DNA from: a virus
Taxonomy: Duplodnaviria; Caudoviricetes
Virus record (IMG/VR): IMGVR_UViG_3300015050_000842
Location: 9,894-73,893 of that record
Strand: one strand, 5' to 3'
Length of the DNA: 64,000 nt
Below the pieces are notes generated by a model. It was not told the origin of the DNA, did no database searches, and saw only the letters and a list, made by a program, of their open reading frames with translations. Made by a program: the position numbers and the translations under genes. Positions 8,375 to 34,293 of the stretch are shown here, in pieces (position 1 is the first letter of the stretch; each line of letters opens with the position of its first letter).

Positions 8375-9150
8375 TATCTTCTGTAAGGTATTCCTCTCCA
8401 ATAATTAGGTTGCATCTGACCCATTCCTGTAATCTTGTTGTAATTACTCATACCTCCGAACCCGCTAAATGGATAGCCACTCATAGGTTGTGTTGATTGT
8501 GGATTAGGCATACCGAATTGAGATAGGTATTGTTGTGAGTTGAAAGGCGACTGTGAAACTCCTGTTGCCATTTGTCCCTGACTATCACCTGACATTTTAC
8601 CACCGTTAAGCATAGCCATTTGACCAATTTGAGATAGTTCGCTTAATCCTCCCATTACGTTCTGACGACCTGCACCTTGTAACGCTGCTGCTGCATCAGC
8701 TTGTTCGCCAAATTTTTGGAATTTATCCCATTGTTGTTTCGCTAACTGTTGCTGACCGATTTGACTTCTGTAACCCATAGCTGACCTTTGATTAGCCATT
8801 CTTGCATTTGCATCTGCTACGTCTAATCCTAAAGTTGCATCGTTTCCTGCTCTTACAATTCCTGCTAAACCTCTTGGATTGCCCATTCTGCCAAACTGAC
8901 GTAATGCCGATGCTTGGTTTCTTTGGAAGTTTTGCTGTGCTTGGTTATATTGCTGTTGTGGCAGACCAATCTTTGCCATATTCTCGGCAATAGCTAAGTT
9001 CTGATGAAACTCTTTGGGTATTTCGTAGGTAGGTCTTATGTTTTGCTTGGCAAGTTTATTCCCTTTTGCGCCTTGGAAAATGCCTTGAATGCCTTTCACA
9101 ACTGACGGTATCGCTGCTATACCTGCTGATATTAATTGCGGTGGAATCAT
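8374..9150 (-). CDS. Putative ejection/pilot protein (Gly/Gln/Ala/Met-rich)
   Basis: 258 aa with an N-terminal GIAAIPSVVKGIQGIFQG amphipathic segment and Q-rich helices, typical of small podovirus ejection proteins; has its own promoter upstream. Confidence 0.7.
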   Translation of the reverse strand: MIPPQLISAGIAAIPSVVKGIQGIFQGAKGNKLAKQNIRPTYEIPKEFHQNLAIAENMAKIGLPQQQYNQAQQNFQRNQASALRQFGRMGNPRGLAGIVRAGNDATLGLDVADANARMANQRSAMGYRSQIGQQQLAKQQWDKFQKFGEQADAAAALQGAGRQNVMGGLSELSQIGQMAMLNGGKMSGDSQGQMATGVSQSPFNSQQYLSQFGMPNPQSTQPMSGYPFSGFGGMSNYNKITGMGQMQPNYWRGIPYRR

Positions 9151-9168
9151 AATGCTATTCTTTTAAAA

Positions 9169-9176
9169 CAAATGTA
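9169..9176 (-). promoter_or_regulatory. Bacteroidota-type -7 promoter box (TACATTTG)
   Basis: Matches TAnnTTTG, 18 nt upstream of ATG 9150. Confidence 0.6.
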
Positions 9177-9190
9177 ACGATATTTACAAC

Positions 9191-9436
9191 TTATTTTTTA
9201 CCTATTGATTGTAACGCTCTGCCACGTTCATCTTCAATCTCTTTTTGTAACTCTACACACCTTACTACAAACAGTAGAAACGGTATCGGGAAACGTGCTA
9301 TTCTCTCATACAACTCAAAAAGTGGTGTCCGTGAGTCGTATAACCTGATACAAGCATCTAAAGTATTCATGTTTATCTTACTTATTGCTTTGTTCTTTTT
9401 ACACAAATCTGCTATGTACTGCCTGTGGTGGTTCAC
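9191..9436 (-). CDS. Hypothetical protein (81 aa)
   Basis: ORF track; tightly packed between tail and ejection genes. Confidence 0.6.
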   Translation of the reverse strand: MNHHRQYIADLCKKNKAISKINMNTLDACIRLYDSRTPLFELYERIARFPIPFLLFVVRCVELQKEIEDERGRALQSIGKK

Positions 9437-9439
9437 TTT

Positions 9440-10387
9440 TTACCCTCTTACACCTATAAAACTCTTTTGTGAATTAACTGCAACTGAAAATAACCTCAAC
9501 TTCGTAGACTCCGTAGTAATAATCTCTACTAATATCCAATTGCCCTTTAATACATCACCGTTCACTATTCCACCGACACTATTTATATCTCGCATAAATG
9601 AAGCTGAATACACGCCCTCTACGCTATTGATTGTTACTGTTGTGACTCCGTCATCCAATGTAGATTTTGTGAAGTCCTCGGCTATTAAATCGCTTACCTG
9701 ACCTAAACTTGTTTCTACTCCTTCCTCTGTGGTTATCATTAGCATATTACTCTGTATCGACATACTCTCAAACGTGCTTACAAAAGTGACGTTCTGATTG
9801 AAAGGCATATTGATAATCGTATTATACTGCACTCCGTAGAAATTATTACGACTAGCTGAATTATTTTCGTGTAAGTATAACTGTCCCTCTTTAAACGTAT
9901 AAAGGTTGATAAACAGTCCAAATCCGCAGTCAGGGTTGTAGGTATAGAATGAACTCCACTTATTGTTTTTCTCGCTATAAACGATATTGTTACGCTGTTT
10001 AGCAGTAGTAACCGTTGCGGTGTTTTTTATGTTGAAGATTGAAACTACGCAGTCCGCAGTAGAATAGAACCGTAGTCGTGGACTTGACCCTGCACAAAGT
10101 AAAGTTTCCTGAAAGAATCCTGTGGTTATGCGTTGCGTTCCTGCCGTTGTACCCATAAATGCCTGTAAGTATAATACCCCTGCACTTCCTGTGATACTTG
10201 TTATCGAATACGTTATCTCGTAGGTCTGTCCTGCTTCAATCGTATAACCGTTTAAGTAGATACTCCCTGCATTACACGCTTCGTGAGTGGCAATATTATC
10301 AGCAAAAGACCAACCTGTTGTAACAGACTGTGCTACTAAATCAATATCTATTGGCGTATTTTCAAGCGTGGTGAAACTCATACCCAA
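9440..10387 (-). CDS. C-terminal part of tail muzzle/stabilization protein, preceded by a beta-sandwich domain
   Basis: Second half (NIVYSEKNNKWSSFYTYNPD...LYTFKEGQLYLH...RNNFYGVQY...EGVYSASFMRD...NGDVLKGNW) matches, from memory of the family, the C-terminus of crAss-like/P22 gp10-like muzzle proteins. Confidence 0.7.
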   Translation of the reverse strand: MGMSFTTLENTPIDIDLVAQSVTTGWSFADNIATHEACNAGSIYLNGYTIEAGQTYEITYSITSITGSAGVLYLQAFMGTTAGTQRITTGFFQETLLCAGSSPRLRFYSTADCVVSIFNIKNTATVTTAKQRNNIVYSEKNNKWSSFYTYNPDCGFGLFINLYTFKEGQLYLHENNSASRNNFYGVQYNTIINMPFNQNVTFVSTFESMSIQSNMLMITTEEGVETSLGQVSDLIAEDFTKSTLDDGVTTVTINSVEGVYSASFMRDINSVGGIVNGDVLKGNWILVEIITTESTKLRLFSVAVNSQKSFIGVRG

Positions 10388-10393
10388 AGATAG

Positions 10394-11182
10394 TTACATT
10401 TTAAAATACTTTTTATAGTAGGTGTAGTTCAGTTTATTGACGTTCTGCATCAGAAAAACAATGTACGGGTTGTATAGTCTTTCAAGTTCAAAGTGATTAA
10501 TCGGTGTTAATCTCTCCTTTGCGTAATCCGTAGATTTCTCTTTATGGTTTTCAAAGTTATTAGGGTTGTCTATATCTCCGCTTTGTTTATGTCCTGCAAT
10601 CTCTTGTGGGTCTGACCAATTAAAACAGTAACTTGGAACGTAGTTTTTGTTATGTTCATCTAACTCTCCCTCATCTCTTAACTTAGAATACCAACTTAAT
10701 CCCTCATATCCTGTTAGGTCTGTTCTGAATCCTATTTCTCTTATCCTATCCATTTTAACAATAACACTTGCTTCCATTGTGTTACGTGATAACTCTATTC
10801 CGTTGGCACTTGCAAATAATGAGTATTCAGGTTTCCACGCATCTTTGCCTGTTTCTTGAATCTCTTTGACTGCTTGTTCAATATGCCACTTGAAATACAA
10901 ATCGTCATCGTCTCCGAGCATGAAATAATCCCCTGTGGCGTGAGTTATAGCATCTGTAAGTATTTCCCCTCTGTTCTTATAATCTTCGTTTGTAGCGTAG
11001 TATTTGGCGTTATTCACTACAATTATAGAGTCATCCTTGAATCCTAACTCAATCGGGTGTTCGGTATCGGTATTAAAGATGATTAGTTCCTTATTTTGGT
11101 AGGACTGTGCCTGATACATGGCTACTATTCTACGTACGCAGTAGAATCTTCTATACGTAGTACAAACGAAGCTGACTTTCAT
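10394..11182 (-). CDS. Glycosyltransferase, GT-A/GT2-like
   Basis: MKVSFVCTTYRR...KELIIFNTD...GDYFMLGDDDDLY: GT2 N-terminus and DxD-type motif. Confidence 0.75.
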   Translation of the reverse strand: MKVSFVCTTYRRFYCVRRIVAMYQAQSYQNKELIIFNTDTEHPIELGFKDDSIIVVNNAKYYATNEDYKNRGEILTDAITHATGDYFMLGDDDDLYFKWHIEQAVKEIQETGKDAWKPEYSLFASANGIELSRNTMEASVIVKMDRIREIGFRTDLTGYEGLSWYSKLRDEGELDEHNKNYVPSYCFNWSDPQEIAGHKQSGDIDNPNNFENHKEKSTDYAKERLTPINHFELERLYNPYIVFLMQNVNKLNYTYYKKYFKM

Positions 11183-11791
11183 CTAAATAAATTTATTTGT
11201 TTCATTACCCCAAGAATACCAACCATTTGAATTTTGACGAGCAAATAATTCTAATTTAATTGCATCAGGGTATAGTTCTTCAATTCTTGACCTTGCATCA
11301 TTTGGTTTTCTACTATGCTCTTTGCGTTCTGCTTCAATCAACTGCCTTACATTGTTTGATTTCTTAAAATCTTTCATACTTCCTTTTATGCCAAGCAAAC
11401 ATATTTCAGTTGATTTTAGAGTATGTGGTGCAAAATTTAAAACTGTTTTACCTGTACTTGTTTTTTTAAGCCAAACAAAAGCAATAGTTTTATACTTAAA
11501 TCCCCATGATTCCATTACTTCAATACCATCTTTTAAGTGACTATCAGTAACCCACATAAAACAAGCACAATTTTTATCAGTAATTTCTTTTACAGGTAGT
11601 TCTTTTATTTGGTCAATAGTCATTGTAGCATAAATACGTTCAATAGTCCTAAATCTATTTTCTCGTTTATCACTACCTTTTTTTTTATCTCCGTATAACT
11701 CCTTACTTCCATATTGCCAAGCAGGGTCAGCATAAATAACATTGTATTTTCTACCCTTGCAAAACATTAATAAATTATCCGAATCTTCCAT
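11183..11791 (-). CDS. MT-A70 family N6-adenine methyltransferase
   Basis: YNVIYADPAW, FMWVT, WGFKYKTIAFVWLK, EHSRKP, KLELFAR and WGNE motifs. Confidence 0.9.
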   Translation of the reverse strand: MEDSDNLLMFCKGRKYNVIYADPAWQYGSKELYGDKKKGSDKRENRFRTIERIYATMTIDQIKELPVKEITDKNCACFMWVTDSHLKDGIEVMESWGFKYKTIAFVWLKKTSTGKTVLNFAPHTLKSTEICLLGIKGSMKDFKKSNNVRQLIEAERKEHSRKPNDARSRIEELYPDAIKLELFARQNSNGWYSWGNETNKFI

Positions 11792-11792
11792 T

Positions 11793-12383
11793 TTACCTAA
11801 ATAATAATACTTGGCTATCCATAAAATACAATACTCTGAATCCGTTTTTAATCAGATAAGGTATGCTTAACTTTCCTTTACCGTTCCACTCATCATCAAA
11901 AACATCGTCAATAAGCACAAAACAGTTATCATTTAACTTATTCCAAACTGCCTTTAGTTCGTTCAACTGATGTTCGTGGCATTTACGTACATTTTCTTCA
12001 TCACCACAGTAATCAAAGCTATCTAAGAACAGAAAGTCTATTGGTCTGTGAAAGTTTTTAAGAAACTCGATGCTATCTTGCTTTTTGTAGGTTACGTATT
12101 GACTTTCAGGAACGACTTCTTTGGCTTTAGATAAATGATTGTCGTCTATATCCACTACGTACACACTTGAATTGGTTAGTTTAGCATACCACTCCCAATT
12201 TAATGTACTCCAACCATCACCGAATCTGCTTTCCTCTGTTGTGTTTCGGATGCAACCCGTTTCAACAATGACTATTGGTCGGCTATACGTGGCTAATAAT
12301 AGGTTTAATACGTTAGTAAAGGACTTATGACGACCTGTTATCGGTCTATCAGAACTGATTTCTTGCCAACTTCCTGAATCCAT
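11793..12383 (-). CDS. Class I SAM methyltransferase (Methyltransf_24-like, possibly sugar O-methyltransferase)
   Basis: VIVETGCIR, VYVVDID, IDFLFLDSFD and FVLIDD motifs. Confidence 0.75.
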   Translation of the reverse strand: MDSGSWQEISSDRPITGRHKSFTNVLNLLLATYSRPIVIVETGCIRNTTEESRFGDGWSTLNWEWYAKLTNSSVYVVDIDDNHLSKAKEVVPESQYVTYKKQDSIEFLKNFHRPIDFLFLDSFDYCGDEENVRKCHEHQLNELKAVWNKLNDNCFVLIDDVFDDEWNGKGKLSIPYLIKNGFRVLYFMDSQVLLFR

Positions 12384-13276
12384 TGATAGTATTTTTTTGA
12401 TGCTGTTTCCGCTTTGATATGTAAAGGTACATTATATGGTAGACAATTCATATAGTCGCACTTATAAAATAATTCACTTTTATTATCAACTACTCCTGCG
12501 TTGTGAAAAATGTTGTACTGATTATACACTTCCTCACTACTTGTACCCCAACTGAAATCAAAATTTTCATGTACCACGGTTTCATATCCACGTTTCCAAC
12601 CGTTCCATAATACCGAAAACATATCGCTACACCAAATTTGCAATTCGTGATAATCGGGCTTTTCTTTTTTGATTTCGTTGTTTAAGTCCGTAATTTCTTT
12701 GAACAATCGCTCTGAATCTCTTTCACATTCAGCCCAATAATCAGCATCTATTCCTTTCATTAGATACTGCGCCCCGATACAGTTTAATTCATTCGATATA
12801 ACGAGTTCTTTGTCTATTCCGACAATATCACACATCGCATCCAATATCTGCTCTCCTTTGCCTCGTATGTACTCCGCAGAGATATAGAATCGTGTGTTTG
12901 AACCGTACCACTTATTATCAGTCAGCATTTCTTCCGTAATCCAACTTGTAGGTGGCTTAGTAAATATTATATCGCAGTCGTGATAGAAAATAACCTCGTC
13001 TTTTAATTCAGGGAATCTCTGCCAATGTTGCTTTAAGATATTTGGTCTTATTGAGGAAATGTAGTGTCGTGTTTCTCTCGTATCGTTGTAGAACAAGAAT
13101 CGTGCAGGGTAGTGATTAGCTAACTTACTCCACGTATTAGGAATTACACCGTTCTCTTTATAGCATACAATGTCTATTTGATTAGGGTTAATACCCATAG
13201 CCATGAAATTTTGTAGCATTACTTCCGTTTGCCAAACATAGTAAGCAGTACAAGGTTGTGCAGAAACAAATCTCAT
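12338..13276 (-). CDS. Putative peptide O-glycosyltransferase (GT95 HPAT / GT96 SERGT-like GT-A fold)
   Basis: Likely start ATG 13276 (MRFVSAQ), 1 nt after the muzzle stop. C..YYVWQ...NF...G.NP, Y..SIRPNIL..HW and IFYHDCDIIFTKP follow the pattern of plant Hyp-arabinosyl/peptidyl-Ser galactosyltransferases (by eye). Confidence 0.6.
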   Translation of the reverse strand: MRFVSAQPCTAYYVWQTEVMLQNFMAMGINPNQIDIVCYKENGVIPNTWSKLANHYPARFLFYNDTRETRHYISSIRPNILKQHWQRFPELKDEVIFYHDCDIIFTKPPTSWITEEMLTDNKWYGSNTRFYISAEYIRGKGEQILDAMCDIVGIDKELVISNELNCIGAQYLMKGIDADYWAECERDSERLFKEITDLNNEIKKEKPDYHELQIWCSDMFSVLWNGWKRGYETVVHENFDFSWGTSSEEVYNQYNIFHNAGVVDNKSELFYKCDYMNCLPYNVPLHIKAETASKKYYQWIQEVGKKSVLIDR

Positions 13277-13277
13277 A

Positions 13278-16200
13278 TTACATGAACGATGTCGTTGTTG
13301 TACTTGTGGTTGTCGGTGTTGAAGCACAAACTACAATATTGGTTACATTTCCATTCACATCCACGTTTCCTACATATCTGATTGCTAAATCATCAGCCGT
13401 ACTGAAACTTACAAAGTCACCGTCATTTGGAACTCCTGTCCACTCTCCAACTAATATTGAAGTGTTGAAGAATTGTGTTACTGTCATAGGGTCGTTAGAC
13501 GCTGCGTAAACAGTTATCGGTTGTCCGTAAAGCGGAGTCATAACAGCACACGCATCAGGTCTACTTGCAGGGTCACTTCCATACAGTCTGTACTCTCTCG
13601 GTGCAGCAGTAGTGGTAGTTGTTGTTGTCGTAGTCGTTGTGGTCGGCTCTGGCTCGGTTGTCGTAGTCGTAGTCGGTGCTGCGGTTGTGGTCGTAGTTGT
13701 AGGTGCAATTGTTGTTGTAGTCGTAGGCGCAACCGTTGTAGTGGTTGTGGTTGTTGGTGCAATCGTAGTCGTTGTAGTCGGTGCGATTGTGGTTGTAGTT
13801 GTTGTACTTGTAGTAGTGGTTGTAGTTGTGGTAGCAACCGCAGTAGTCACAGTATAAGTATCAGATACGCAACCAACAGTTAATGTAGTCGATACAGCAG
13901 TACTTGGACTTGCAGATGCAGTAACCCTTACCTCTACATAATCATTATTTACAACTGTTCCTGCAACACTTGTCCAACTGCCTGTTCCGTTCACACGATA
14001 TTCACCACCGCCTCCTGAAATACTAATTGCAGTCGGAATGTCAATGTCGATAATCAATACTTGATTGGAAGTATAAACCTCTCCCCATTGTGCATCAGTA
14101 ACGTCTAAGAAGTTAATTACGTTAGGGCAGTCATCCCCTGCAACAATAGTTAAACAAACTCTTTTTGTCGTTAAAACACCACCACTCGGAGTAAAGCTAA
14201 ACGTGAAGTTGTCTGTGCCTGTTTCCCCTGTATTTGGAGTGTAGGTCGCAATCCCTGTTCCTGTATTGTACGTAGCAACCCCCTTTGTTCCTTGCGCCGT
14301 TAAGCTAATATCAGCAGGCGGAATAACATACGTATCGTCTAACTGCCAATTCAATTCATTGAACGGAGTATCAAACAGTATATCACCCTCTGTTTCGGTA
14401 GTTAATAGATACTCGTTGTAGAAAATATCGTAGTAGCCGATAATCTTTTTCCCTGCCTCATAAGCCTCTTGAAGCACTCTCTTGAAGTATTTGCTGTTCT
14501 TGCCTGAAATCGTGTCTACACCGTCTAATCCTGCCCGTATAGGCTCACTTCTGAAAGGGTCAACAAAGTAAATGTTGTTATTCCACTCTGCATAGCTTTC
14601 TTTGGCGTTACCCATTCCGATATTCTTACCGTTGTACCGTACACTATTGAATATTTGAGTGCTTAACGCATATTGTTCTGCCGAAGATTGGTCTTCCACG
14701 ATTGTTTGGAATACAGGAACATAACCTACCTTTAACTCCTGCAACACCACTAAGACGTTGTTTCTTTGGCGTATCTTTCTAATCCAACCGTAATTGGATG
14801 AAGTTTCTCCGTCACCATCACCATAAATACTTTCAGGATAAAATCGTGTCAATCCATTTACCAATGAATCACGTTGGAATACCTCTGAATATCTGATACT
14901 CGCTTTACGTTCTATTCTCCCTCTCTCATCGTTGTACGTTCTTGGCTTTCCATAAGAAGCATAAGCACTTGCATAGAAGTCGCTAAAGTTAAAGTCCTCA
15001 ACAACTAAGCTATCCAACTGATTCAGGTCAACACCGTTTGCCATTTCACGGCTTTTCATGTACACATCACCTGCACGAATATCTCCCGAAGTAACGGTAT
15101 GTACTCCGTTAGTTATTGGATAGGAAATGCCTACCTCATACATTAACTGTTCGGTGTACTCTGTTGTGCCACTAACTGTTTCTGTTCTCTGTTTAGGCGT
15201 GTAAATCTCTAATAATACGTTATTGTTCTCTAATGTAGCCTGTGATACACCTGACGGAATATTGACCTTTAGAATGTAGTCGATTATTGTCGGGTCTACC
15301 GTGTCAATAACAATCTCAAAATCCACAACCTCCACATCAATCTTATCCAACCATACTTTCGGTGAAGTGTTATCCGCTAATATGTAATACACAAACGTAC
15401 ACCTATCTCCTGCTGAATATTCATAACTCAACACGCTTGACGGATAGGCTTCGTTGAATTTCTTTAACGGATTGATGTTAAACGCAAAATAAGTTGAAGT
15501 GGTAAGTGCTGCGTCTAAAGTCCCCTGAACCCACAATGTCGTTTGATGCGTGTTGTTTAACGATAATCCCCAACCGTAATACGCTGCGTCAGCAGGTGGG
15601 TCGTGGTATATCTCCCAATGAATCATGGATGCTAAACCCTGTATTTGAGAATACGAAGGAGTTTTTACCACATAGTTTTCATCAGTACAAATAGGGAAGT
15701 ATCTACCCCACTTATCCTTATACCACAAAAATGTCTGATAGCTTGAATTGGATTTTAATGCTGACCTTGATATTGATGCACCTGTTCCTGCCAAAGCTAA
15801 GTCAACATTGACTAATAATGCTTTCTCTGTTCCACCGTCAGGGGTTTCGCTACTTCTTCTTGTAGTGAACTGTAAAACCCAATAGAGTGAATCGAATAAA
15901 TACACCGTGGTAGGATAAGGCATTGTCGCAGCGAAAGCACGTACCGCAGCCTCCGTATCTCCGTCTTGTCCTGCCGTAACAGTATAAGTCATTGTTTCGT
16001 AAACAACATCGGCTAAATTGGAGGTTACTATCGTGAACTCATCACCTGTCTGTGCTGTCCCTGCATAGTAAATTCTTACCTTACGATACGATGTACCGCT
16101 TACTCTTTCTTGTTGCCAATTCTCTACTCGTAATGCTACCGTAGGGTCAGGTGGAACAACGGCTATGTCAGGGTTGTAATTCACTACCTGAACTAACACA

Positions 16201-17267
16201 TCTGTTTCAGGTCTGTCATACCCCTCTGTAATTCCGCCTAATGCTAACTGATTGCCATTAATATTCTCTAAAGTTTCACACTTTAAAGGAACGTGGTCGT
16301 AATCTAAGTCGGTTTCTAAGGGGTCGACATTGCTATATAGTCCGTCATTATAGAAACAGAAATAGTACGTATTCGTAGTCGGGTCATACGCCTCTCTAAT
16401 CTCTGCATCTAAATCTATTGCAGTATCAGTAATTGTTAATATGTAATCCCTGTCAACGGTTAGTATATCAAAGAAGTCAAGTGTTCCGATTCGTGCTACT
16501 GCCTTTATTGTTTGCACTCGGTCTGTGCCTATATCCAATCCTACTATCAATGTATTGTTTGATGTTACGCTTGTTCCAACGGAAGGAGTAGATTCGTTTG
16601 TCGGAACTTCTCGCTTACTCATTATAGAATATACGCTGTACTCATTGTCTAAGTAGACGTACTGATACATGAATTGGAATAGGCTACCTTTTAATAGGTT
16701 TACAGACCTTGTATCGTCACTTCCGAACTCTACCGTAGGCACAATCATTGGTTGCGCTTTGATAATTAAAAAGTCATTTTCGGTAAGTACATCGTAACCA
16801 CCTGCCTCTAATCGTGTTAGATTAGTCATACAAGGCTGATAGTTTCCGTCAGTCCACGCTAATAGGTAGTCGTTGATTAACTTTATATCGTTGACGTAGT
16901 ATTCAGGTGTTAAAGGAAGTATGTTTTCGTTATCAGAGTCAGTCAAATTCTCGAATACATTGGTTTGAGTATTCGCATCGTAATCTAACTTAGCGATAAC
17001 GTGATAGAGTTGCGAGTTGAAAATAAAAGAATAGGCGGTACGAGTGATTTCAAAACCTGCTGCCCCGATTGCTTTGTTTATTCCTGTCGGGAGTGTGTTT
17101 GCTATTAATGAATTGCTTTCAGGGTTGGTTGCAAGACCTTCTTCGCCATCCTCTGTGCCATTTACCCTTAAATTATACGAATCTACAAAATCTGACTGCC
17201 CGACAAACTCAATGGCATCGTCAAGATTAAGACCTCCGTTATTAAATATTTTAATGTTTTCAGGCAT
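13278..17267 (-). CDS. Tail muzzle/stabilization protein (N-terminal part) with appended Ig-like domains and mucin-like Thr stalk
   Basis: 1329 aa. SIRYSE...NGLTRF, YGWIRKI, LQELKV, IYFVDP and IIGYYD..NEYLLT motifs of crAss-like/P22 gp10-like muzzle proteins, then YTPNTGETGTDNFTFS (Ig/cadherin-like) and Thr-rich repeats. Confidence 0.75.
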   Translation of the reverse strand: MPENIKIFNNGGLNLDDAIEFVGQSDFVDSYNLRVNGTEDGEEGLATNPESNSLIANTLPTGINKAIGAAGFEITRTAYSFIFNSQLYHVIAKLDYDANTQTNVFENLTDSDNENILPLTPEYYVNDIKLINDYLLAWTDGNYQPCMTNLTRLEAGGYDVLTENDFLIIKAQPMIVPTVEFGSDDTRSVNLLKGSLFQFMYQYVYLDNEYSVYSIMSKREVPTNESTPSVGTSVTSNNTLIVGLDIGTDRVQTIKAVARIGTLDFFDILTVDRDYILTITDTAIDLDAEIREAYDPTTNTYYFCFYNDGLYSNVDPLETDLDYDHVPLKCETLENINGNQLALGGITEGYDRPETDVLVQVVNYNPDIAVVPPDPTVALRVENWQQERVSGTSYRKVRIYYAGTAQTGDEFTIVTSNLADVVYETMTYTVTAGQDGDTEAAVRAFAATMPYPTTVYLFDSLYWVLQFTTRRSSETPDGGTEKALLVNVDLALAGTGASISRSALKSNSSYQTFLWYKDKWGRYFPICTDENYVVKTPSYSQIQGLASMIHWEIYHDPPADAAYYGWGLSLNNTHQTTLWVQGTLDAALTTSTYFAFNINPLKKFNEAYPSSVLSYEYSAGDRCTFVYYILADNTSPKVWLDKIDVEVVDFEIVIDTVDPTIIDYILKVNIPSGVSQATLENNNVLLEIYTPKQRTETVSGTTEYTEQLMYEVGISYPITNGVHTVTSGDIRAGDVYMKSREMANGVDLNQLDSLVVEDFNFSDFYASAYASYGKPRTYNDERGRIERKASIRYSEVFQRDSLVNGLTRFYPESIYGDGDGETSSNYGWIRKIRQRNNVLVVLQELKVGYVPVFQTIVEDQSSAEQYALSTQIFNSVRYNGKNIGMGNAKESYAEWNNNIYFVDPFRSEPIRAGLDGVDTISGKNSKYFKRVLQEAYEAGKKIIGYYDIFYNEYLLTTETEGDILFDTPFNELNWQLDDTYVIPPADISLTAQGTKGVATYNTGTGIATYTPNTGETGTDNFTFSFTPSGGVLTTKRVCLTIVAGDDCPNVINFLDVTDAQWGEVYTSNQVLIIDIDIPTAISISGGGGEYRVNGTGSWTSVAGTVVNNDYVEVRVTASASPSTAVSTTLTVGCVSDTYTVTTAVATTTTTTTTSTTTTTTIAPTTTTTIAPTTTTTTTVAPTTTTTIAPTTTTTTAAPTTTTTTEPEPTTTTTTTTTTTTAAPREYRLYGSDPASRPDACAVMTPLYGQPITVYAASNDPMTVTQFFNTSILVGEWTGVPNDGDFVSFSTADDLAIRYVGNVDVNGNVTNIVVCASTPTTTSTTTTSFM
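13600..13835 (-). repeat. Low-complexity Thr-rich repeat [T4-7-(I/V/A)AP]n encoding a mucin-like stalk
   Basis: About 80 codons: ATTTTTTTTSTTTTTTIAPTTTTTIAPTTTTTTTVAP...EPEPTTTTTTTTTTTTAAP; all four Thr codons are interspersed. Confidence 0.95.
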
Positions 17268-17272
17268 ATTGG

Positions 17273-18043
17273 TCAGGCTTTTCCAACAAGTTTTGTTCCA
17301 ATTCTGGCGGCGTCAGCAAGCTCATTAAGCACAAACTGATTAATGCGCATAGCTGCTAATCTTCTCTCTCTGTAATACTCTATCTTAAACATTCTCACAT
17401 CACCCTGACTGAATTTCTTACGTAAATCAATTGCATTTTTCCACCTTAAAAAAGCCATAAATGCTTGTTCTGCCTTAGAATCAATTTCGTAGTCATCTGC
17501 GTTTTCGTCATATCCGTCACTCATATACTCCAATACTAATTGACTGTAATGGTTGTGAATATCTAAGATGATTAGTCCGTTGCTTTCATCTACCTTATAC
17601 GAGCCTACTTTTGGTGTTCCGCTATCTGCACCAAACAGATTATAAGACGTTCCGTTATAATAGTAATTGTAGTAGTAATTCGGATAGGTGTCTTGGTCAA
17701 AGAACGGTGTTAATGTATTCAATACAGGCGCACCCTCTTTCCGTAGACTTTGAGTAGTGTAAATACTGTTCCACGTAGATAGTTGGTCGTTACGTTTATA
17801 AGTAACCACTTCACCCTTATCGTTCAATACTCCGATTTTAGAGTAGGATATATAGTCTTGTGGCAGATTAACTGTTTTGTTCGCATTTACGTCTAATACA
17901 ACGGTCTTTATGTTCCCTGTTATGTCAAGGTTAAACTCCCTGCATCCCTGCACTCCGATATTGTATAAACGCCTGAATCCATGAACAGACTCATCGGCAC
18001 TATTCAGGAATTGCGATACTAATTTTTTTAATGCTATCTTCAT
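17273..18043 (-). CDS. Tail ring/tubular protein
   Basis: 256 aa in the tail cluster; V.LP.DYISYSKIG motif and C-terminal helix resemble crAss-like ring proteins. Confidence 0.6.
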   Translation of the reverse strand: MKIALKKLVSQFLNSADESVHGFRRLYNIGVQGCREFNLDITGNIKTVVLDVNANKTVNLPQDYISYSKIGVLNDKGEVVTYKRNDQLSTWNSIYTTQSLRKEGAPVLNTLTPFFDQDTYPNYYYNYYYNGTSYNLFGADSGTPKVGSYKVDESNGLIILDIHNHYSQLVLEYMSDGYDENADDYEIDSKAEQAFMAFLRWKNAIDLRKKFSQGDVRMFKIEYYRERRLAAMRINQFVLNELADAARIGTKLVGKA

Positions 18044-31168: not shown

Positions 31169-33592
31169 TCATTTATTTTTATAAACCCAAACTAATTCAT
31201 CCAAATACTTTCTATCCATATCAAATCCAAAGATTTCGTCTACGGCTTCAATAACTCCCTCGTGCGCCTCGCAATAGTCGTGACCTGATATTATGCCGTT
31301 CTTTTTAATTTTAGGCAACCACGCCCTTATATCGGAGTAAACCCGACTTTTTACATGGTCAGCATCCAAAAATAGAAAATCAATGCTTTCATCTTCAAAC
31401 TGTTCTGCACTTAATCCACTATCGCCTTTAATAACATTTACTTTGTCGATTACCGATGCTAAGTTTCTTCTGAATACAACCTCGATGTTTTCATTTGTCT
31501 GTTCGTCATTAAACGTAAAGCTATCGACTGCATATACATTGAAACTCTTGTTTGCACGTAGCATTTCTACCATGAAGTAAGCAAGACTTTTGCCCTCATA
31601 GACACCTACTTCTACCACATTACTTCCGTTTGGTAAGGATTGAACAATGTCTTTGTAGAATCTTGGAAATGTAAACCACCCTGTTATTGGTTCGTAGAAG
31701 TGCTTTATTTCATCTAATGACTTTTTCAGGTATTGCTTACATAGCTTAATAGCCATAGTTGGTCGTACTAATCCAAATTGTGCCTGATACGGTATCATTC
31801 GGTATAAGTGTAATGCACAGTAGAAGTACGCTTTTCTGATAACCAACTCTCTGTCCTGTCCTAAAATCTTCGTGTAGAAGTCTATAATCATATCGAACTC
31901 TAACTCTGAATATTCGGGTGCGGTTTCTGAATCCCAAAACTCATACTTAGTCAAGTACGACTGCATCAGCTTTCCTAAGTCCTGTTCAACTACTCCTGCC
32001 TTATTGTCGTTGTCGAAGTCTATCATCTTAACAGAGAACTTATTAACCAATACATTTTCGTAGGTTAAATCTCCGTGATAGTTTTGATAAGAAATGGTCG
32101 GTGACAAATCGTGAATACGTACTGACGTTCTTAAAATAGTCAATATCTCATCTGTTTCATTACCTAATCCGATTTCATGTAGCTTATCTTTCTTTGAAAA
32201 TATCTTTTCTGAAAGGTAATCGTGTAACCAATACGAAATAATCAAAGACTTATTCCCACTATCATACCACTTGCTTAGGCAATCAAACAACTCATTGAGT
32301 GCTAAAACTCTGTCCTGAATTGATAGTAAATGAAGTGGTTTGTAACCGCTTAACTTCTCCATTACGTAGCTATCCTCTTTAAACTCACCTATCTTTGGAA
32401 CTAAGTAGTGTAGTTTAGAGTCTGATACGGCTTTCATAGATTCGTACTGTGCCTTGAATTTTACTTTCTGATACTCTGTGGCATCTTTCGGTAAATACTT
32501 CAACACAATGTCGTTATGATAGGATAGCTTCGCTTCACTATGACCTAAAGCAATATCCTTAATACCCTCATCCCTCTTTACTTCGTGTGCCATAGCCATA
32601 GGTTTTTCTGAATACGGTTTTTTGTCGTTTATTAAATATCTTGTCCCAGAGGGTAAACCCATAACCAAATGTTCATATCGTACTCCTGCCTTGCGTAGCA
32701 TATACTCCAATTCAGGTCGGAACTGTTCATCCCTGCTTGTTGTTAGTACGATAAAACAATTGTTGTCTTTCCGCCACTCGTCTATCTTTTCTCTTGCACC
32801 CTCTAAAAACTCAATATCTTTAGTGTAGTCAGGGATATTCTCGTGTTTGATTACTGTTCCATCTAAGTCGCAGAATATTGTGGATGCTTTCTTTTCCTCA
32901 TACATATTCTTTAACCGTTCAGGGTCGCCAAAGAACTCTGCTTCTTTTACCTCTACTGCCTTAGTCTTATGATACTGAATATTAATTCCGTCTGCTATTA
33001 TATCTGATATATACTTCATATCATGGGTTGGTTTGAATAGCTTTGAAAAATAGTAGCACCCAATAACTCCATAGCTTAATGTTTTCTCAACCATATTTGG
33101 CTTAGACTTTTCTGAAATAGACCTGACCATATTATTATCGTCAACCCTAACTACACTCCACTTGTTTATTTCAGATTCACTAATGTTATATACAGGAACA
33201 ATGCAATTAAATTTACCCTTATCAATATCCTTAAATATACCATCCACATTCAATGAGTGGTCGCAGTCACAGAATATTACATCGTTCAATACGTCTTGAT
33301 GCTCGAATAAGGCTGATATGGTTTCAACAGGACTTTTAGTTGGTTGTATCGGTACAATTTGCAGGTTTGCAGGAATGTTAAAGCTACGGAATCTTTCTTC
33401 TACGTTAAACTGAATCAAGTGGTCTTTCCTGACAATAAATACAAAATCTTTTATTCTGTCCTTGTGCTTTAAGAATGGTTGCACGGCAAGTTCAATGAAT
33501 GTTTTATCAAAAATCTTGAAAAACGGCTTAAATTTCCCTCCAAACCGTTGAGATTCTCCTGCCATTGGAAAGACTACTGTTACTTTATTCAT
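31169..33592 (-). CDS. Four-domain fusion: sugar-phosphate nucleotidyltransferase + HAD phosphatase + APH/choline-kinase-like kinase + class I methyltransferase
   Basis: VFPMAGESQRF...KP (NTP-transferase); IFCDLDGT, LTTSR, YLIND (HAD); YHGDLTYENV, MIDFD, DLGKL (kinase); VEVGVYEGKS, FLFLDADH, GIISGHDY (methyltransferase). Confidence 0.85.
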   Translation of the reverse strand: MNKVTVVFPMAGESQRFGGKFKPFFKIFDKTFIELAVQPFLKHKDRIKDFVFIVRKDHLIQFNVEERFRSFNIPANLQIVPIQPTKSPVETISALFEHQDVLNDVIFCDCDHSLNVDGIFKDIDKGKFNCIVPVYNISESEINKWSVVRVDDNNMVRSISEKSKPNMVEKTLSYGVIGCYYFSKLFKPTHDMKYISDIIADGINIQYHKTKAVEVKEAEFFGDPERLKNMYEEKKASTIFCDLDGTVIKHENIPDYTKDIEFLEGAREKIDEWRKDNNCFIVLTTSRDEQFRPELEYMLRKAGVRYEHLVMGLPSGTRYLINDKKPYSEKPMAMAHEVKRDEGIKDIALGHSEAKLSYHNDIVLKYLPKDATEYQKVKFKAQYESMKAVSDSKLHYLVPKIGEFKEDSYVMEKLSGYKPLHLLSIQDRVLALNELFDCLSKWYDSGNKSLIISYWLHDYLSEKIFSKKDKLHEIGLGNETDEILTILRTSVRIHDLSPTISYQNYHGDLTYENVLVNKFSVKMIDFDNDNKAGVVEQDLGKLMQSYLTKYEFWDSETAPEYSELEFDMIIDFYTKILGQDRELVIRKAYFYCALHLYRMIPYQAQFGLVRPTMAIKLCKQYLKKSLDEIKHFYEPITGWFTFPRFYKDIVQSLPNGSNVVEVGVYEGKSLAYFMVEMLRANKSFNVYAVDSFTFNDEQTNENIEVVFRRNLASVIDKVNVIKGDSGLSAEQFEDESIDFLFLDADHVKSRVYSDIRAWLPKIKKNGIISGHDYCEAHEGVIEAVDEIFGFDMDRKYLDELVWVYKNK

Positions 33593-34293
33593 AACGTGAA
33601 GTTATTAGCATCGTTAGCAAACATCTGTACCGTTTCAATACTATAATCCCTTAAATTCTTGTCTTTCATCTTTAGCTTTTCCAAGATTGGTTGCGGTATA
33701 GTGATAATGTCGCAGTACTCTTTTGCTAAGTGAATATCGCCAAGACTTCTTACTCCAGCCCAAAGTAACTTGATATTACCCCTGTCCGTTCCTATCATAT
33801 CGCTAATCTTTTTGATTATCGTGTTTGGAGATATGCCTGTATCAGCTATTCTGCCTGAAAAAACAGATAATACTACATCGTAGTCTTTAGTTACACCTAA
33901 GTCTAACAACTCTCTGACCTGCTGTGGAGTAAATATTGCCGTTACATTTATTTTGATTCCATCGTCAAGCAAGAATTTGATTACTTCGGCACAAGACTCT
34001 CCTTTGTCGTTTACTATCGGAATCTTAACATATACATTGTGACCCCAACTACTGATTTCTAATGCCTGAAATACAATGTCCTTTAGGTCGTTGGTCAAGA
34101 CCTGAATCGAAACAGGATAACCGTTACTATTGTCAATTATCGCATTGCAGTAATCTTTATAAACAATTGGTAAATATTGTTTCACCAAAGAGGGATTGCA
34201 AGTGAAGCCTGTAACGTCAAAATCTGTAAGTACGTGGTTAATGTACTCTTTGGTTGGCTCAATGCCATCTGCGTAAATTTCTAATTCTCTCAT
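33589..34293 (-). CDS. tal: Transaldolase / fructose-6-phosphate aldolase family protein
   Basis: IYADG, GFTCNPSL, VYVKIP (Schiff-base Lys), INVTAIF, SVFSGRIADTG, LLWAG and DIITIP motifs. Confidence 0.9.
   Translation of the reverse strand: MRELEIYADGIEPTKEYINHVLTDFDVTGFTCNPSLVKQYLPIVYKDYCNAIIDNSNGYPVSIQVLTNDLKDIVFQALEISSWGHNVYVKIPIVNDKGESCAEVIKFLLDDGIKINVTAIFTPQQVRELLDLGVTKDYDVVLSVFSGRIADTGISPNTIIKKISDMIGTDRGNIKLLWAGVRSLGDIHLAKEYCDIITIPQPILEKLKMKDKNLRDYSIETVQMFANDANNFTL

Follow-up and report, generated by a model that had tools for sequence, protein, structure and literature searches.

In crAss-like and related podophages the muzzle, at the tail tip, serves as the gate and makes the first contact. 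In crAss001 it consists of a ring-joining domain, a seven-bladed propeller resembling the T7 nozzle, two Ig-like domains and a large distal domain (PMC10172136). The crAss-type muzzle is so far described as one chain, and our literature search found no description of a split muzzle in Pachyviridae-like phages. A nozzle built from two proteins has been solved in the Pseudomonas podophage A1002, in which gp39 (nozzle-rope) and gp42 (nozzle-base) share the propeller and platform (PMC13730344, 2026), so the principle of a two-chain nozzle is already known. Phage glycosyltransferases have been linked to glycans carried covalently by virion proteins in mycobacteriophages Che8 and Rita (Freeman et al. 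2023, as cited in PMC11256854). Here we analyze a 64,000-nucleotide stretch (the window) of IMG/VR record IMGVR_UViG_3300015050_000842, a complete virus contig of 73,893 bp with direct terminal repeats, whose source is an uncultured 74-kb phage of Flavobacteria type. Within the window, an open reading frame (ORF) of 1329 aa (P0001, the N-piece) and one of 315 aa (P0002, the C-piece) encode two parts of one muzzle protein, and the gap between them is occupied by a cassette of glycosyltransferase and methyltransferase genes.

Two ORFs encode one muzzle protein

P0001 carries the motif IIGYYDIFYNEYLLT at residues 941-955, just before the break, and P0002 takes up again with NIVYSEKNNKWSSFYTY at residue 134. 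By tblastn, P0001 residues 1-955 and then P0002 residues ~130-214 match consecutive parts of one gene, that of the virion protein gp097 (1324 aa) of Cellulophaga phage phi40:1. Pairwise alignment ends P0001 at gp097 residue 1072 and restarts P0002, from about its residue 130, at residue 1075, with few residues missing. Fused homologues match both pieces in order, far beyond chance, while P0001 and P0002 have no significant similarity to each other, so P0002 is not a duplicate of P0001. A trimmed alignment (A4), built from 75 sequences that were fused, N-piece or C-piece, places the break in a loop of about 1-15 residues in nine fused homologues. A full-length global alignment (A3), which forced tails and N-terminal domains onto the fused target and misaligned them, was discarded in favor of the trimmed one.

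Fused homologues carry both Pfam muzzle families above their cut-off of 27 bits: crAss_MUZ_C (PF25729) in phi40:1 gp097 (67.9 bits) and L016 (48 bits), and crAss_MUZ (PF25731) in L066 (45.7 bits), a fused homologue that is 27-31% identical to P0001. PF25729 is also precomputed on many members of the P0002 family, which are 42-85% identical. Sequence searches of the PDB with P0001, P0002, phi40:1 gp097, the fused L066 protein and the C-piece profile returned no muzzle or nozzle match; structure comparison alone found it. One crAss-type muzzle, or podovirus nozzle, protein is here divided into an N-terminal part, P0001, and a C-terminal part, P0002. A preliminary description made from the letters of the window had listed the two frames, the motifs at their junction and a four-gene gap of ~2.9 kb, all of which are present, and its suggestion that the 315-aa frame resumes the muzzle sequence is borne out by the alignment to single-chain gp097.

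The break maps inside the predicted propeller

The fold was modeled on a fused relative, L031 (1181 aa), from the trimmed alignment. The model has a mean predicted local distance difference test score (pLDDT) of 77.7 and a predicted template modeling score (pTM) of 0.75; residues 376-521 fall below a pLDDT of 50, the last ~360 residues mostly exceed 90, and residues 999-1181, the counterpart of the C-piece core, do so as well. Its best PDB match is the crAss001 muzzle (7qol_P, Foldseek E 4.8e-36), to which VIA aligns 842 residues at Z 29.4 and a root-mean-square deviation (rmsd) of 5.8, pairing model residues 1-1176 with chain residues 4-1371. The podovirus nozzles of SU10, Pa223, GP4 and VP1, T7 gp12 and P22 gp10 follow at Z 17-22, with the platform and seven-bladed beta-propeller fold matched over 418-468 residues at rmsd 3.3-4.0. 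Seven-bladed WD40 proteins, G-beta included, align to the model from residue 5-8 to ~1043.

The break corresponds to L031 residues 994-1001 and, lying within the WD40-aligned span of residues 6 to ~1043, falls inside the propeller. Strands 974-981 and 986-993 precede it in the model; strands 1002-1007, 1012-1017, 1024-1027, 1030-1035 and 1038-1042 follow, and the crAss_MUZ_C domain starts at 1048. According to the model, the propeller of the N-piece stops five strands short and those strands are on the C-piece, neither piece alone making a whole propeller, which agrees with the earlier proposal that the propeller is divided over two polypeptides. By the same comparison, N-piece residues 1-958 would comprise the ring-joining region, blades 1-5 with two opening strands of the following blade, and, as insertions, Ig-like and distal domains. 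From strand order and the G-beta end points, the break most likely separates strand 2 of blade 6 from strand 3; blade 7 would then come from the C-piece, perhaps closed by an N-terminal strand.

The split is widespread and under purifying selection

Alignment-based scans of IMG/VR and JGI metagenomes provided 95 loci for comparison; a single-sequence scan of IMG/VR with P0002 had returned no match. Three states are found among these loci: fused, split with directly adjacent genes (gap <30 nt) and split with one to four genes in between. The adjacent split is the commonest, and the ORFs of many relatives lie end to end or share a few bases. Homologues of P0002 form >150 clusters of 300-315 aa at 42-100% identity, many of them on 70-76-kb contigs. 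A profile of the C-piece core matches 5815 representative proteins, and among the best 150 of these matches ~120 are stand-alone and 28 fused (>950 aa). Some stand-alone C-pieces open with the resumed strand; in the others an N-terminal extension, ~125 or 180-350 residues long, precedes it.

The same split is present in Cellulophaga phage phi18:3, where 3 nt separate the two genes: Ig/cadherin domains follow the break in gp114 (1612 aa), the 241-aa gp115 begins directly with the resumed strand, and both are annotated as virion proteins detected by tandem mass spectrometry. Between the window and its nearest relative (L084), the ratio of nonsynonymous to synonymous substitution rates (dN/dS) amounts to 0.10-0.12 in the N-piece and 0.09 in the C-piece; the three cassette genes that both loci have give 0.07-0.12, and dS is near saturation. 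A tree of the first 380 residues separates a clade whose C-pieces bear a 128-aa N-terminal domain, the window among them, from a clade with short C-pieces, and each has fused neighbors. On this N-terminal tree (root unknown) the fused or split state requires four changes, at least two of which are forced by well-supported branches, and the loop may, from these sequences, have been broken more than once. We conclude that the split is old, widespread and functional.

Free ends carry accessory domains, and the junction later received genes

After the break, the N-piece continues into an Ig-like region, a threonine-rich tract and a small terminal domain, as the preliminary description had read from the translation, and it thus ends in the free, mucin-like tail anticipated there. 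The first 168 residues of this tail are shared by relatives L004-L015 and L089-L098 in conserved form, and weak Big_9/Cadherin_5 matches fall at the same place in relatives' tails; Pfam searches with the window's own N-piece tail, its small terminal domain and the C-piece N-terminal domain gave no match. The core of the tract, ~80 residues, is built of blocks of 5-12 threonines with (I/V/A)AP or EPEP spacers, the threonine fraction reaching 0.77 over 30 residues. Its threonine codons are mixed as in the rest of the gene (ACA 21, ACT 19, ACC 10, ACG 9), so the tract is no simple DNA repeat. On the other side of the break, the 128-aa N-terminal domain of the C-piece is kept in >150 clusters of 303-313-aa proteins and is absent from phi18:3-type C-pieces. 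Accessory domains are seen solely on the free ends of split forms, and none of the nine fused homologues has more than ~15 residues at the break loop.

Two observations concern the history of the tail. Compared with the nearest relative (L084:3343-7275), the P0001 gene is a mosaic, with 64% identity over the muzzle part (958 residues), 84% over the tail and 92% in the C-piece, a pattern that suggests recombination inside the N-piece gene. In L089 and L006, DUF5977 is one of the domains of the N-piece tail, and in L014 (L014:8449-9801) it forms an ORF of its own, 450 aa long, that lies between the two muzzle pieces; tail domains can evidently be shed into genes of their own.

The clade that contains the window has 17 rows (support 100). 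The pieces are adjacent in 11 of them, and cassettes are confined to a seven-row subclade and L014, which holds a different gene; all outgroups of the cassette-bearing subclade are adjacent-split except L014. Given the adjacent split in both clade and outgroups, the cassette entered an already existing gene junction. Its content varies. The nearest relative has the GT-A fold glycosyltransferase, the methyltransferase and the family-2 glycosyltransferase (GT2), without the MT-A70 gene; L085 has the GT-A and GT2 genes; L090, L094 and L097 combine the GT-A gene with an unknown gene of 287-301 aa; and L096, cut upstream by the contig end, has a weaker GT-A homologue (39% identity) with two methyltransferases. 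In L089, L091 and L098 nothing lies between the pieces and the N-piece tails are longer. Cassette gene 2 is 78% identical in L084 (dN/dS 0.09), and the GT2 gene lies directly upstream of the C-piece in L084, L085, L086 and L088 (dN/dS 0.07). The evidence fits an order in which the split came first, then domain accretion on the free ends, then cassette insertion.

The MT-A70 gene (11183-11791) is missing from the otherwise collinear L084 cassette, and is a recent gain or loss inside the cassette; it is probably unrelated to the other three genes. Junctions in other lineages have contents of their own. An unknown family of 309-410 aa lies between the pieces in the short-C-piece clade (L038:9046-9975, L040, L044, L063, L081, L067, L069, L077); Pfam, PHROG and the Atlas gave no lead for it, and no poly-Thr tract lies nearby. 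In a distant lineage (L048:4272-9011, IMG/VR 3300025543_005075), the gap holds a PF11397 GlcNAc-transferase (Skp1/mucin-type), an FkbM methyltransferase and a 765-aa DxD glycosyltransferase, with long Pro-Thr repeats on both flanking muzzle pieces, and it looks like an independent glycosyl/methyl cassette at the same junction. Two further loci (L045:6354-9050 and L083:6421-9227) have a 2OG-Fe(II) oxygenase (PF13640, prolyl-4-hydroxylase type) and two unknown genes between the pieces, with Pro-Thr repeat linkers in neighboring ORFs; this oxygenase may serve a hydroxyproline-based modification.

A phrog_4417 glycosyltransferase is encoded next to poly-Thr tracts

The first cassette gene encodes P0003, a member of phrog_4417. 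Its AlphaFold model (pLDDT 95.3) matches the UGGT catalytic domain, LgtC, glycogenin and XXYLT1 in Foldseek at probability 1.00 and E down to 7.6e-7. The PDB yields 209 matches at E up to 0.001, and the top 50 are glycosyltransferases, mostly GT-A enzymes of GT8/GT24 type. D100 and D102 (HDCD, a DxD motif) and the H258-N-A-G motif are invariant in 23 sequences, down to 38% identity. P0003 is, by its model, a GT-A fold glycosyltransferase. The phrog_4417 family counts 1762 proteins at E up to 0.001, all unnamed, and no Pfam family matched P0003. Membership in HPAT/GT95-GT96 (PF23452) was considered and rejected, as 0 of 23 family members match by hmmscan at E up to 1; the Atlas contains one look-alike cluster of P0003 with PF23452 on 10% of its members, which we regard as a lead only. 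A subset of phrog_4417 proteins is longer (397-422 aa), with an N-terminal extension of 85-100 residues (P0135, P0139, P0165, P0175; L090:7863-9101).

We scanned every ORF of all loci for poly-Thr tracts. They occur only in loci that have a phrog_4417 gene, and all 12 informative uncultured loci are paired (the window, L084, L085, L090, L094, L097, L034, L043, L050/L074, L039 and L060). The phrog_4417 gene directly follows the tract-bearing ORF, except in L039, where one gene intervenes. L060 has a fused muzzle, downstream of which come two poly-Thr ORFs and then the phrog_4417 gene, an arrangement which argues that the glycosyltransferase tracks the tract and not the break. Within the window's clade, tract and cassette are present or absent together, the cassette-free L089, L091 and L098 being without a tract.

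The pairing extends to cultured phages: eight of the ten inspected that encode a homologue of the glycosyltransferase have a poly-Thr tract in the protein encoded just upstream, namely Enterococcus phiFL1A, Lactococcus 1706, Clostridium phiCTP1, Lacticaseibacillus R9.1, Staphylococcus PT94, Lactobacillus Bacchae, Lactobacillus 521B and Chryseobacterium MA9V-3. The tract lies at or within ~10 residues of the C-terminus in six cultured phages. Six of the ten upstream genes have annotations as major tail, major head, capsid or Ig-like proteins; in phiFL1A (gp50) and 1706 (orf13) the poly-Thr protein is the major tail protein. Our literature search found no paper on poly-Thr tails paired with a glycosyltransferase in phages. 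This association of gene neighborhoods makes P0003 a candidate O-glycosyltransferase for the ~80-residue Thr/Pro stalk. In phiFL1A (L099:1957-2955), the major head protein also has a Thr-rich tract, TTTTKPTTTTTKP, and the phrog_4417 enzyme of this phage may have more than one virion substrate.

Layout of the locus

The 2890-nt gap between the pieces is filled by four close-packed genes on the same strand (Table 1). Spacing from stop to next start in the locus is 0-12 nt, and the phrog_4417 ATG lies 1 nt past the P0001 stop. P0002 probably starts at Met3, which makes it 313 aa long, the length of all its homologues. Promoter and terminator scans of positions 9000-17600 yielded no excess over shuffled expectation. 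Elsewhere in the window (31169-34293) is an 807-aa multidomain protein with a C-terminal Methyltransf_24/O-methyltransferase domain and a weak HAD signal, followed by a transaldolase; the two may form a sugar-donor pathway for the glycosylation system.

Table 1 Features of the split muzzle locus, in window coordinates, with the basis of each assignment.
Feature	Position	Strand	Basis or remark
P0001 (N-piece)	13278-17267	(-)	1329-aa ORF
P0002 (C-piece)	9440-10387	(-)	315-aa ORF
N-piece muzzle-homologous part, residues 1-958	14394..17267	(-)	phrog_14478 virion structural protein; collinear with phi40:1 gp097 1-1072; aligned to fused homologues
N-piece tail Ig-like (Big_9/cadherin-like) region, residues 959-1133, directly after the break	13869..14393	(-)	tail conserved in relatives
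Poly-Thr/Pro mucin-like tract, residues 1134-1228	13584..13868	(-)	threonine density; codon mix
Small C-terminal globular domain (residues 1229-1315), terminal Thr-rich tail and stop	13278..13583	(-)	translation; 91% identical in L085
Cassette gene 1, P0003, phrog_4417, 312 aa from ATG at 13276	12338..13276	(-)	phrog_4417 E 4.6e-61; GT-A model
Cassette gene 2, S-adenosylmethionine (SAM)-dependent methyltransferase (Methyltransf_24)	11793..12383	(-)	Pfam PF13578 E 2.8e-8
Cassette gene 3, MT-A70 family DNA N6-adenine methyltransferase	11183..11791	(-)	PF05063 E 7.5e-32; phrog_359 DNA methyltransferase
Cassette gene 4, family-2 glycosyltransferase (GT2)	10394..11182	(-)	PF00535 E 6.4e-6
C-piece N-terminal accessory domain, residues 3-129	10001..10381	(-)	no counterpart in fused proteins
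C-piece core, residues 130-315: predicted last five propeller strands, then muzzle C-terminal domain	9440..10000	(-)	aligns to L031 residues 999-1181

Discussion

We favor, at a probability of roughly 0.7 for the explanation as a whole, an anciently split muzzle whose junction later received a cassette, with the GT-A enzyme tied to the poly-Thr tract. The separately translated 313-aa C-piece would supply the five final strands of the propeller together with the muzzle C-terminal domain, and the two chains would interlock, closing the propeller in each of six tail-tip subunits. The free end of the N-piece gained the Ig-like domain, the ~80-residue poly-Thr/Pro stalk and the small terminal domain, that of the C-piece its 128-aa N-terminal domain, and the four genes were inserted later into the existing junction. 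The cassette would be located there because the phrog_4417 glycosyltransferase is habitually encoded right after a poly-Thr virion gene. The GT-A enzyme would most likely O-glycosylate the tract in the cytoplasm, before assembly; the GT2 enzyme would extend the glycan and the SAM methyltransferase would methylate it, and the MT-A70 protein would be an unrelated DNA methyltransferase that arrived at the same landing spot.

Several points weigh against this explanation. In the window itself, P0002 scores 17.5 bits (E 0.0056) against PF25729, below the cut-off of 27, and P0001 has no Pfam match, PF25731 included, at E up to 1. The modeled chain is that of L031, ~24-29% identical to the window proteins, and the blade assignment is based on strand order and alignment end points. 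The analysis shows the homology of the pieces, the site of the break, the sequence of events, the GT-A fold and the link between enzyme gene and tract; interlocking of the chains in trans, the exact blade and glycosylation by P0003 are inferred, and the poly-Thr tract could be a mere flexible linker. Two of the ten cultured phages with the glycosyltransferase (bIL285 and Enterococcus 9183) have no adjacent poly-Thr tract. Other lineages hold unrelated genes at the junction (the DUF5977 protein, the 309-410-aa family and the 2OG-Fe(II) oxygenase), and the window has its MT-A70 gene there, so the junction also behaves as a general insertion hotspot.

This last behavior is the basis of the strongest alternative, that the cassette is an unrelated moron island in a permissive junction whose products modify the host surface polysaccharide or phage DNA and have no tie to the muzzle. 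The identity of the MT-A70 protein as a DNA methyltransferase, the absence of its gene from the nearest relative and the differing cassette content of close relatives fit such an origin, as do the unrelated genes at the same junction in other lineages. However, phrog_4417 and an upstream poly-Thr tract occur together in every informative uncultured locus and in most of the cultured phages, from very different hosts, cassette and tract are present or lacking together within the window's clade, and the glycosyltransferase start codon all but touches the N-piece stop. We therefore consider an unrelated island unlikely for the cassette as a whole, although a hotspot origin is possible for part of it.

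A second alternative reverses the order of events. The preliminary description had proposed that a surface loop gathered accessory domains within an intact muzzle gene and that insertion of the cassette then cut the gene. The cassette does lie exactly between the pieces, and accessory domains flank the break on both sides. Nevertheless, phi18:3, the majority of relatives and the outgroups of the cassette subclade have a split with adjacent genes and no cassette, and 0 of 9 aligned fused homologues exceed ~15 residues at the loop. The proposed order is not supported, and we judge it very improbable.

Even less probable is that the pieces are rejoined, whether by RNA splicing, protein trans-splicing, read-through or frameshifting. 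Recoding is conceivable in principle where the ORFs abut or overlap, as they do in many relatives. Here, by contrast, the pieces are 2.9 kb apart with four conserved genes under purifying selection in between; no Rfam family, group I and II introns included, matches positions 9000-17600 at E up to 1; Pfam reveals no Hint/intein domain, and the junction residues T-T-E and A-K-Q lack the Cys/Ser and His-Asn hallmarks of split inteins; and in phi18:3 each piece has its own annotation as a virion protein. A pseudogene or an assembly artefact, conceivable for a metagenome-assembled viral contig, is the least credible of all, given a complete contig with terminal repeats, the same gene order in independent contigs (L084-L097), a dN/dS of ~0.1 for both pieces and hundreds of stand-alone C-piece clusters.

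A broader extension of the split-muzzle explanation is tentative, and we rate it at slightly less than even. In it, phrog_4417 would represent a widespread, undescribed phage system for mucin-type O-glycosylation of virions, with the enzyme gene directly after the gene of its poly-Thr substrate in phages of both Bacteroidota and Bacillota. The free C-terminus made by the split would here act as a display platform, presenting six glycosylated, methyl-sugar-bearing stalks with small binding domains at the tail tip, and the recurrent junction cassettes with glycosyltransferases and methyltransferases or prolyl-hydroxylase-like enzymes elsewhere would be independent versions.

A conserved and common two-chain muzzle means that annotation with a single-gene marker misses or truncates the muzzle in many aquatic phages. 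It also indicates that a seven-bladed propeller tolerates a break within a blade, and that such a break frees two termini as attachment points for variable accessory domains, which may act as adhesins. The GT-A family, annotated only as hypothetical, together with poly-Thr tails on major tail, capsid-region and tail-tip proteins, offers a testable candidate for virion glycosylation outside actinobacteriophages. The pair occurs in several phages that are in culture and tractable (Enterococcus phiFL1A, Lactococcus 1706, Lactobacillus Bacchae and Chryseobacterium MA9V-3), and the pairing of glycosyltransferase and poly-Thr bears on phage adhesion, stability and immune recognition.

Comparison with known systems

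Among characterized enzymes, retaining GT-A glycosyltransferases of GT8/GT24 type (LgtC, glycogenin, the UGGT catalytic domain and XXYLT1) share the fold and the DxD motif with the P0003 model, at 6-13% identity and TM-scores of only 0.43-0.49. The glycosylated proteins of Che8 and Rita are capsid and tail-tube proteins of actinobacteriophages, whereas the window's candidate substrate, a poly-Thr stalk, belongs to a tail-tip protein, and its candidate enzyme comes from the uncharacterized family phrog_4417.

The crAss001 muzzle gp44 (PDB 7QOK/7QOL; PF25731, PF25729; Bayfield et al. 2023, PMC10172136) has the same architecture, C-terminal domain too. However, gp44 is one chain of ~1370 residues, whereas the chain in the window is cut inside the propeller and bears extra domains on both new ends; crAss001 belongs to Crassvirales, and the 74-kb phage of the window has its cultured relatives in Pervagoviridae and Pachyviridae. 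Its single-chain counterpart is phi40:1 gp097 (Pervagoviridae). Closest in organization are gp114 and gp115 of Cellulophaga phi18:3 (Pachyviridae), split at the same loop and with extra Ig/cadherin domains on gp114, but with no cassette between them and without the 128-aa N-terminal domain on gp115.

In A1002, going by gene numbers, gp39 and gp42 flank the fibre genes gp40 and gp41, in contrast to the enzymes that separate the pieces in the window. Its lineage and its break are different, with two incomplete blades on one protein, and the likeness to the split described here would be one of principle. That likeness is suggested by two features, the propeller strands that homology to the modeled chain places on either side of the break and the presence of both pieces in phi18:3 virions.

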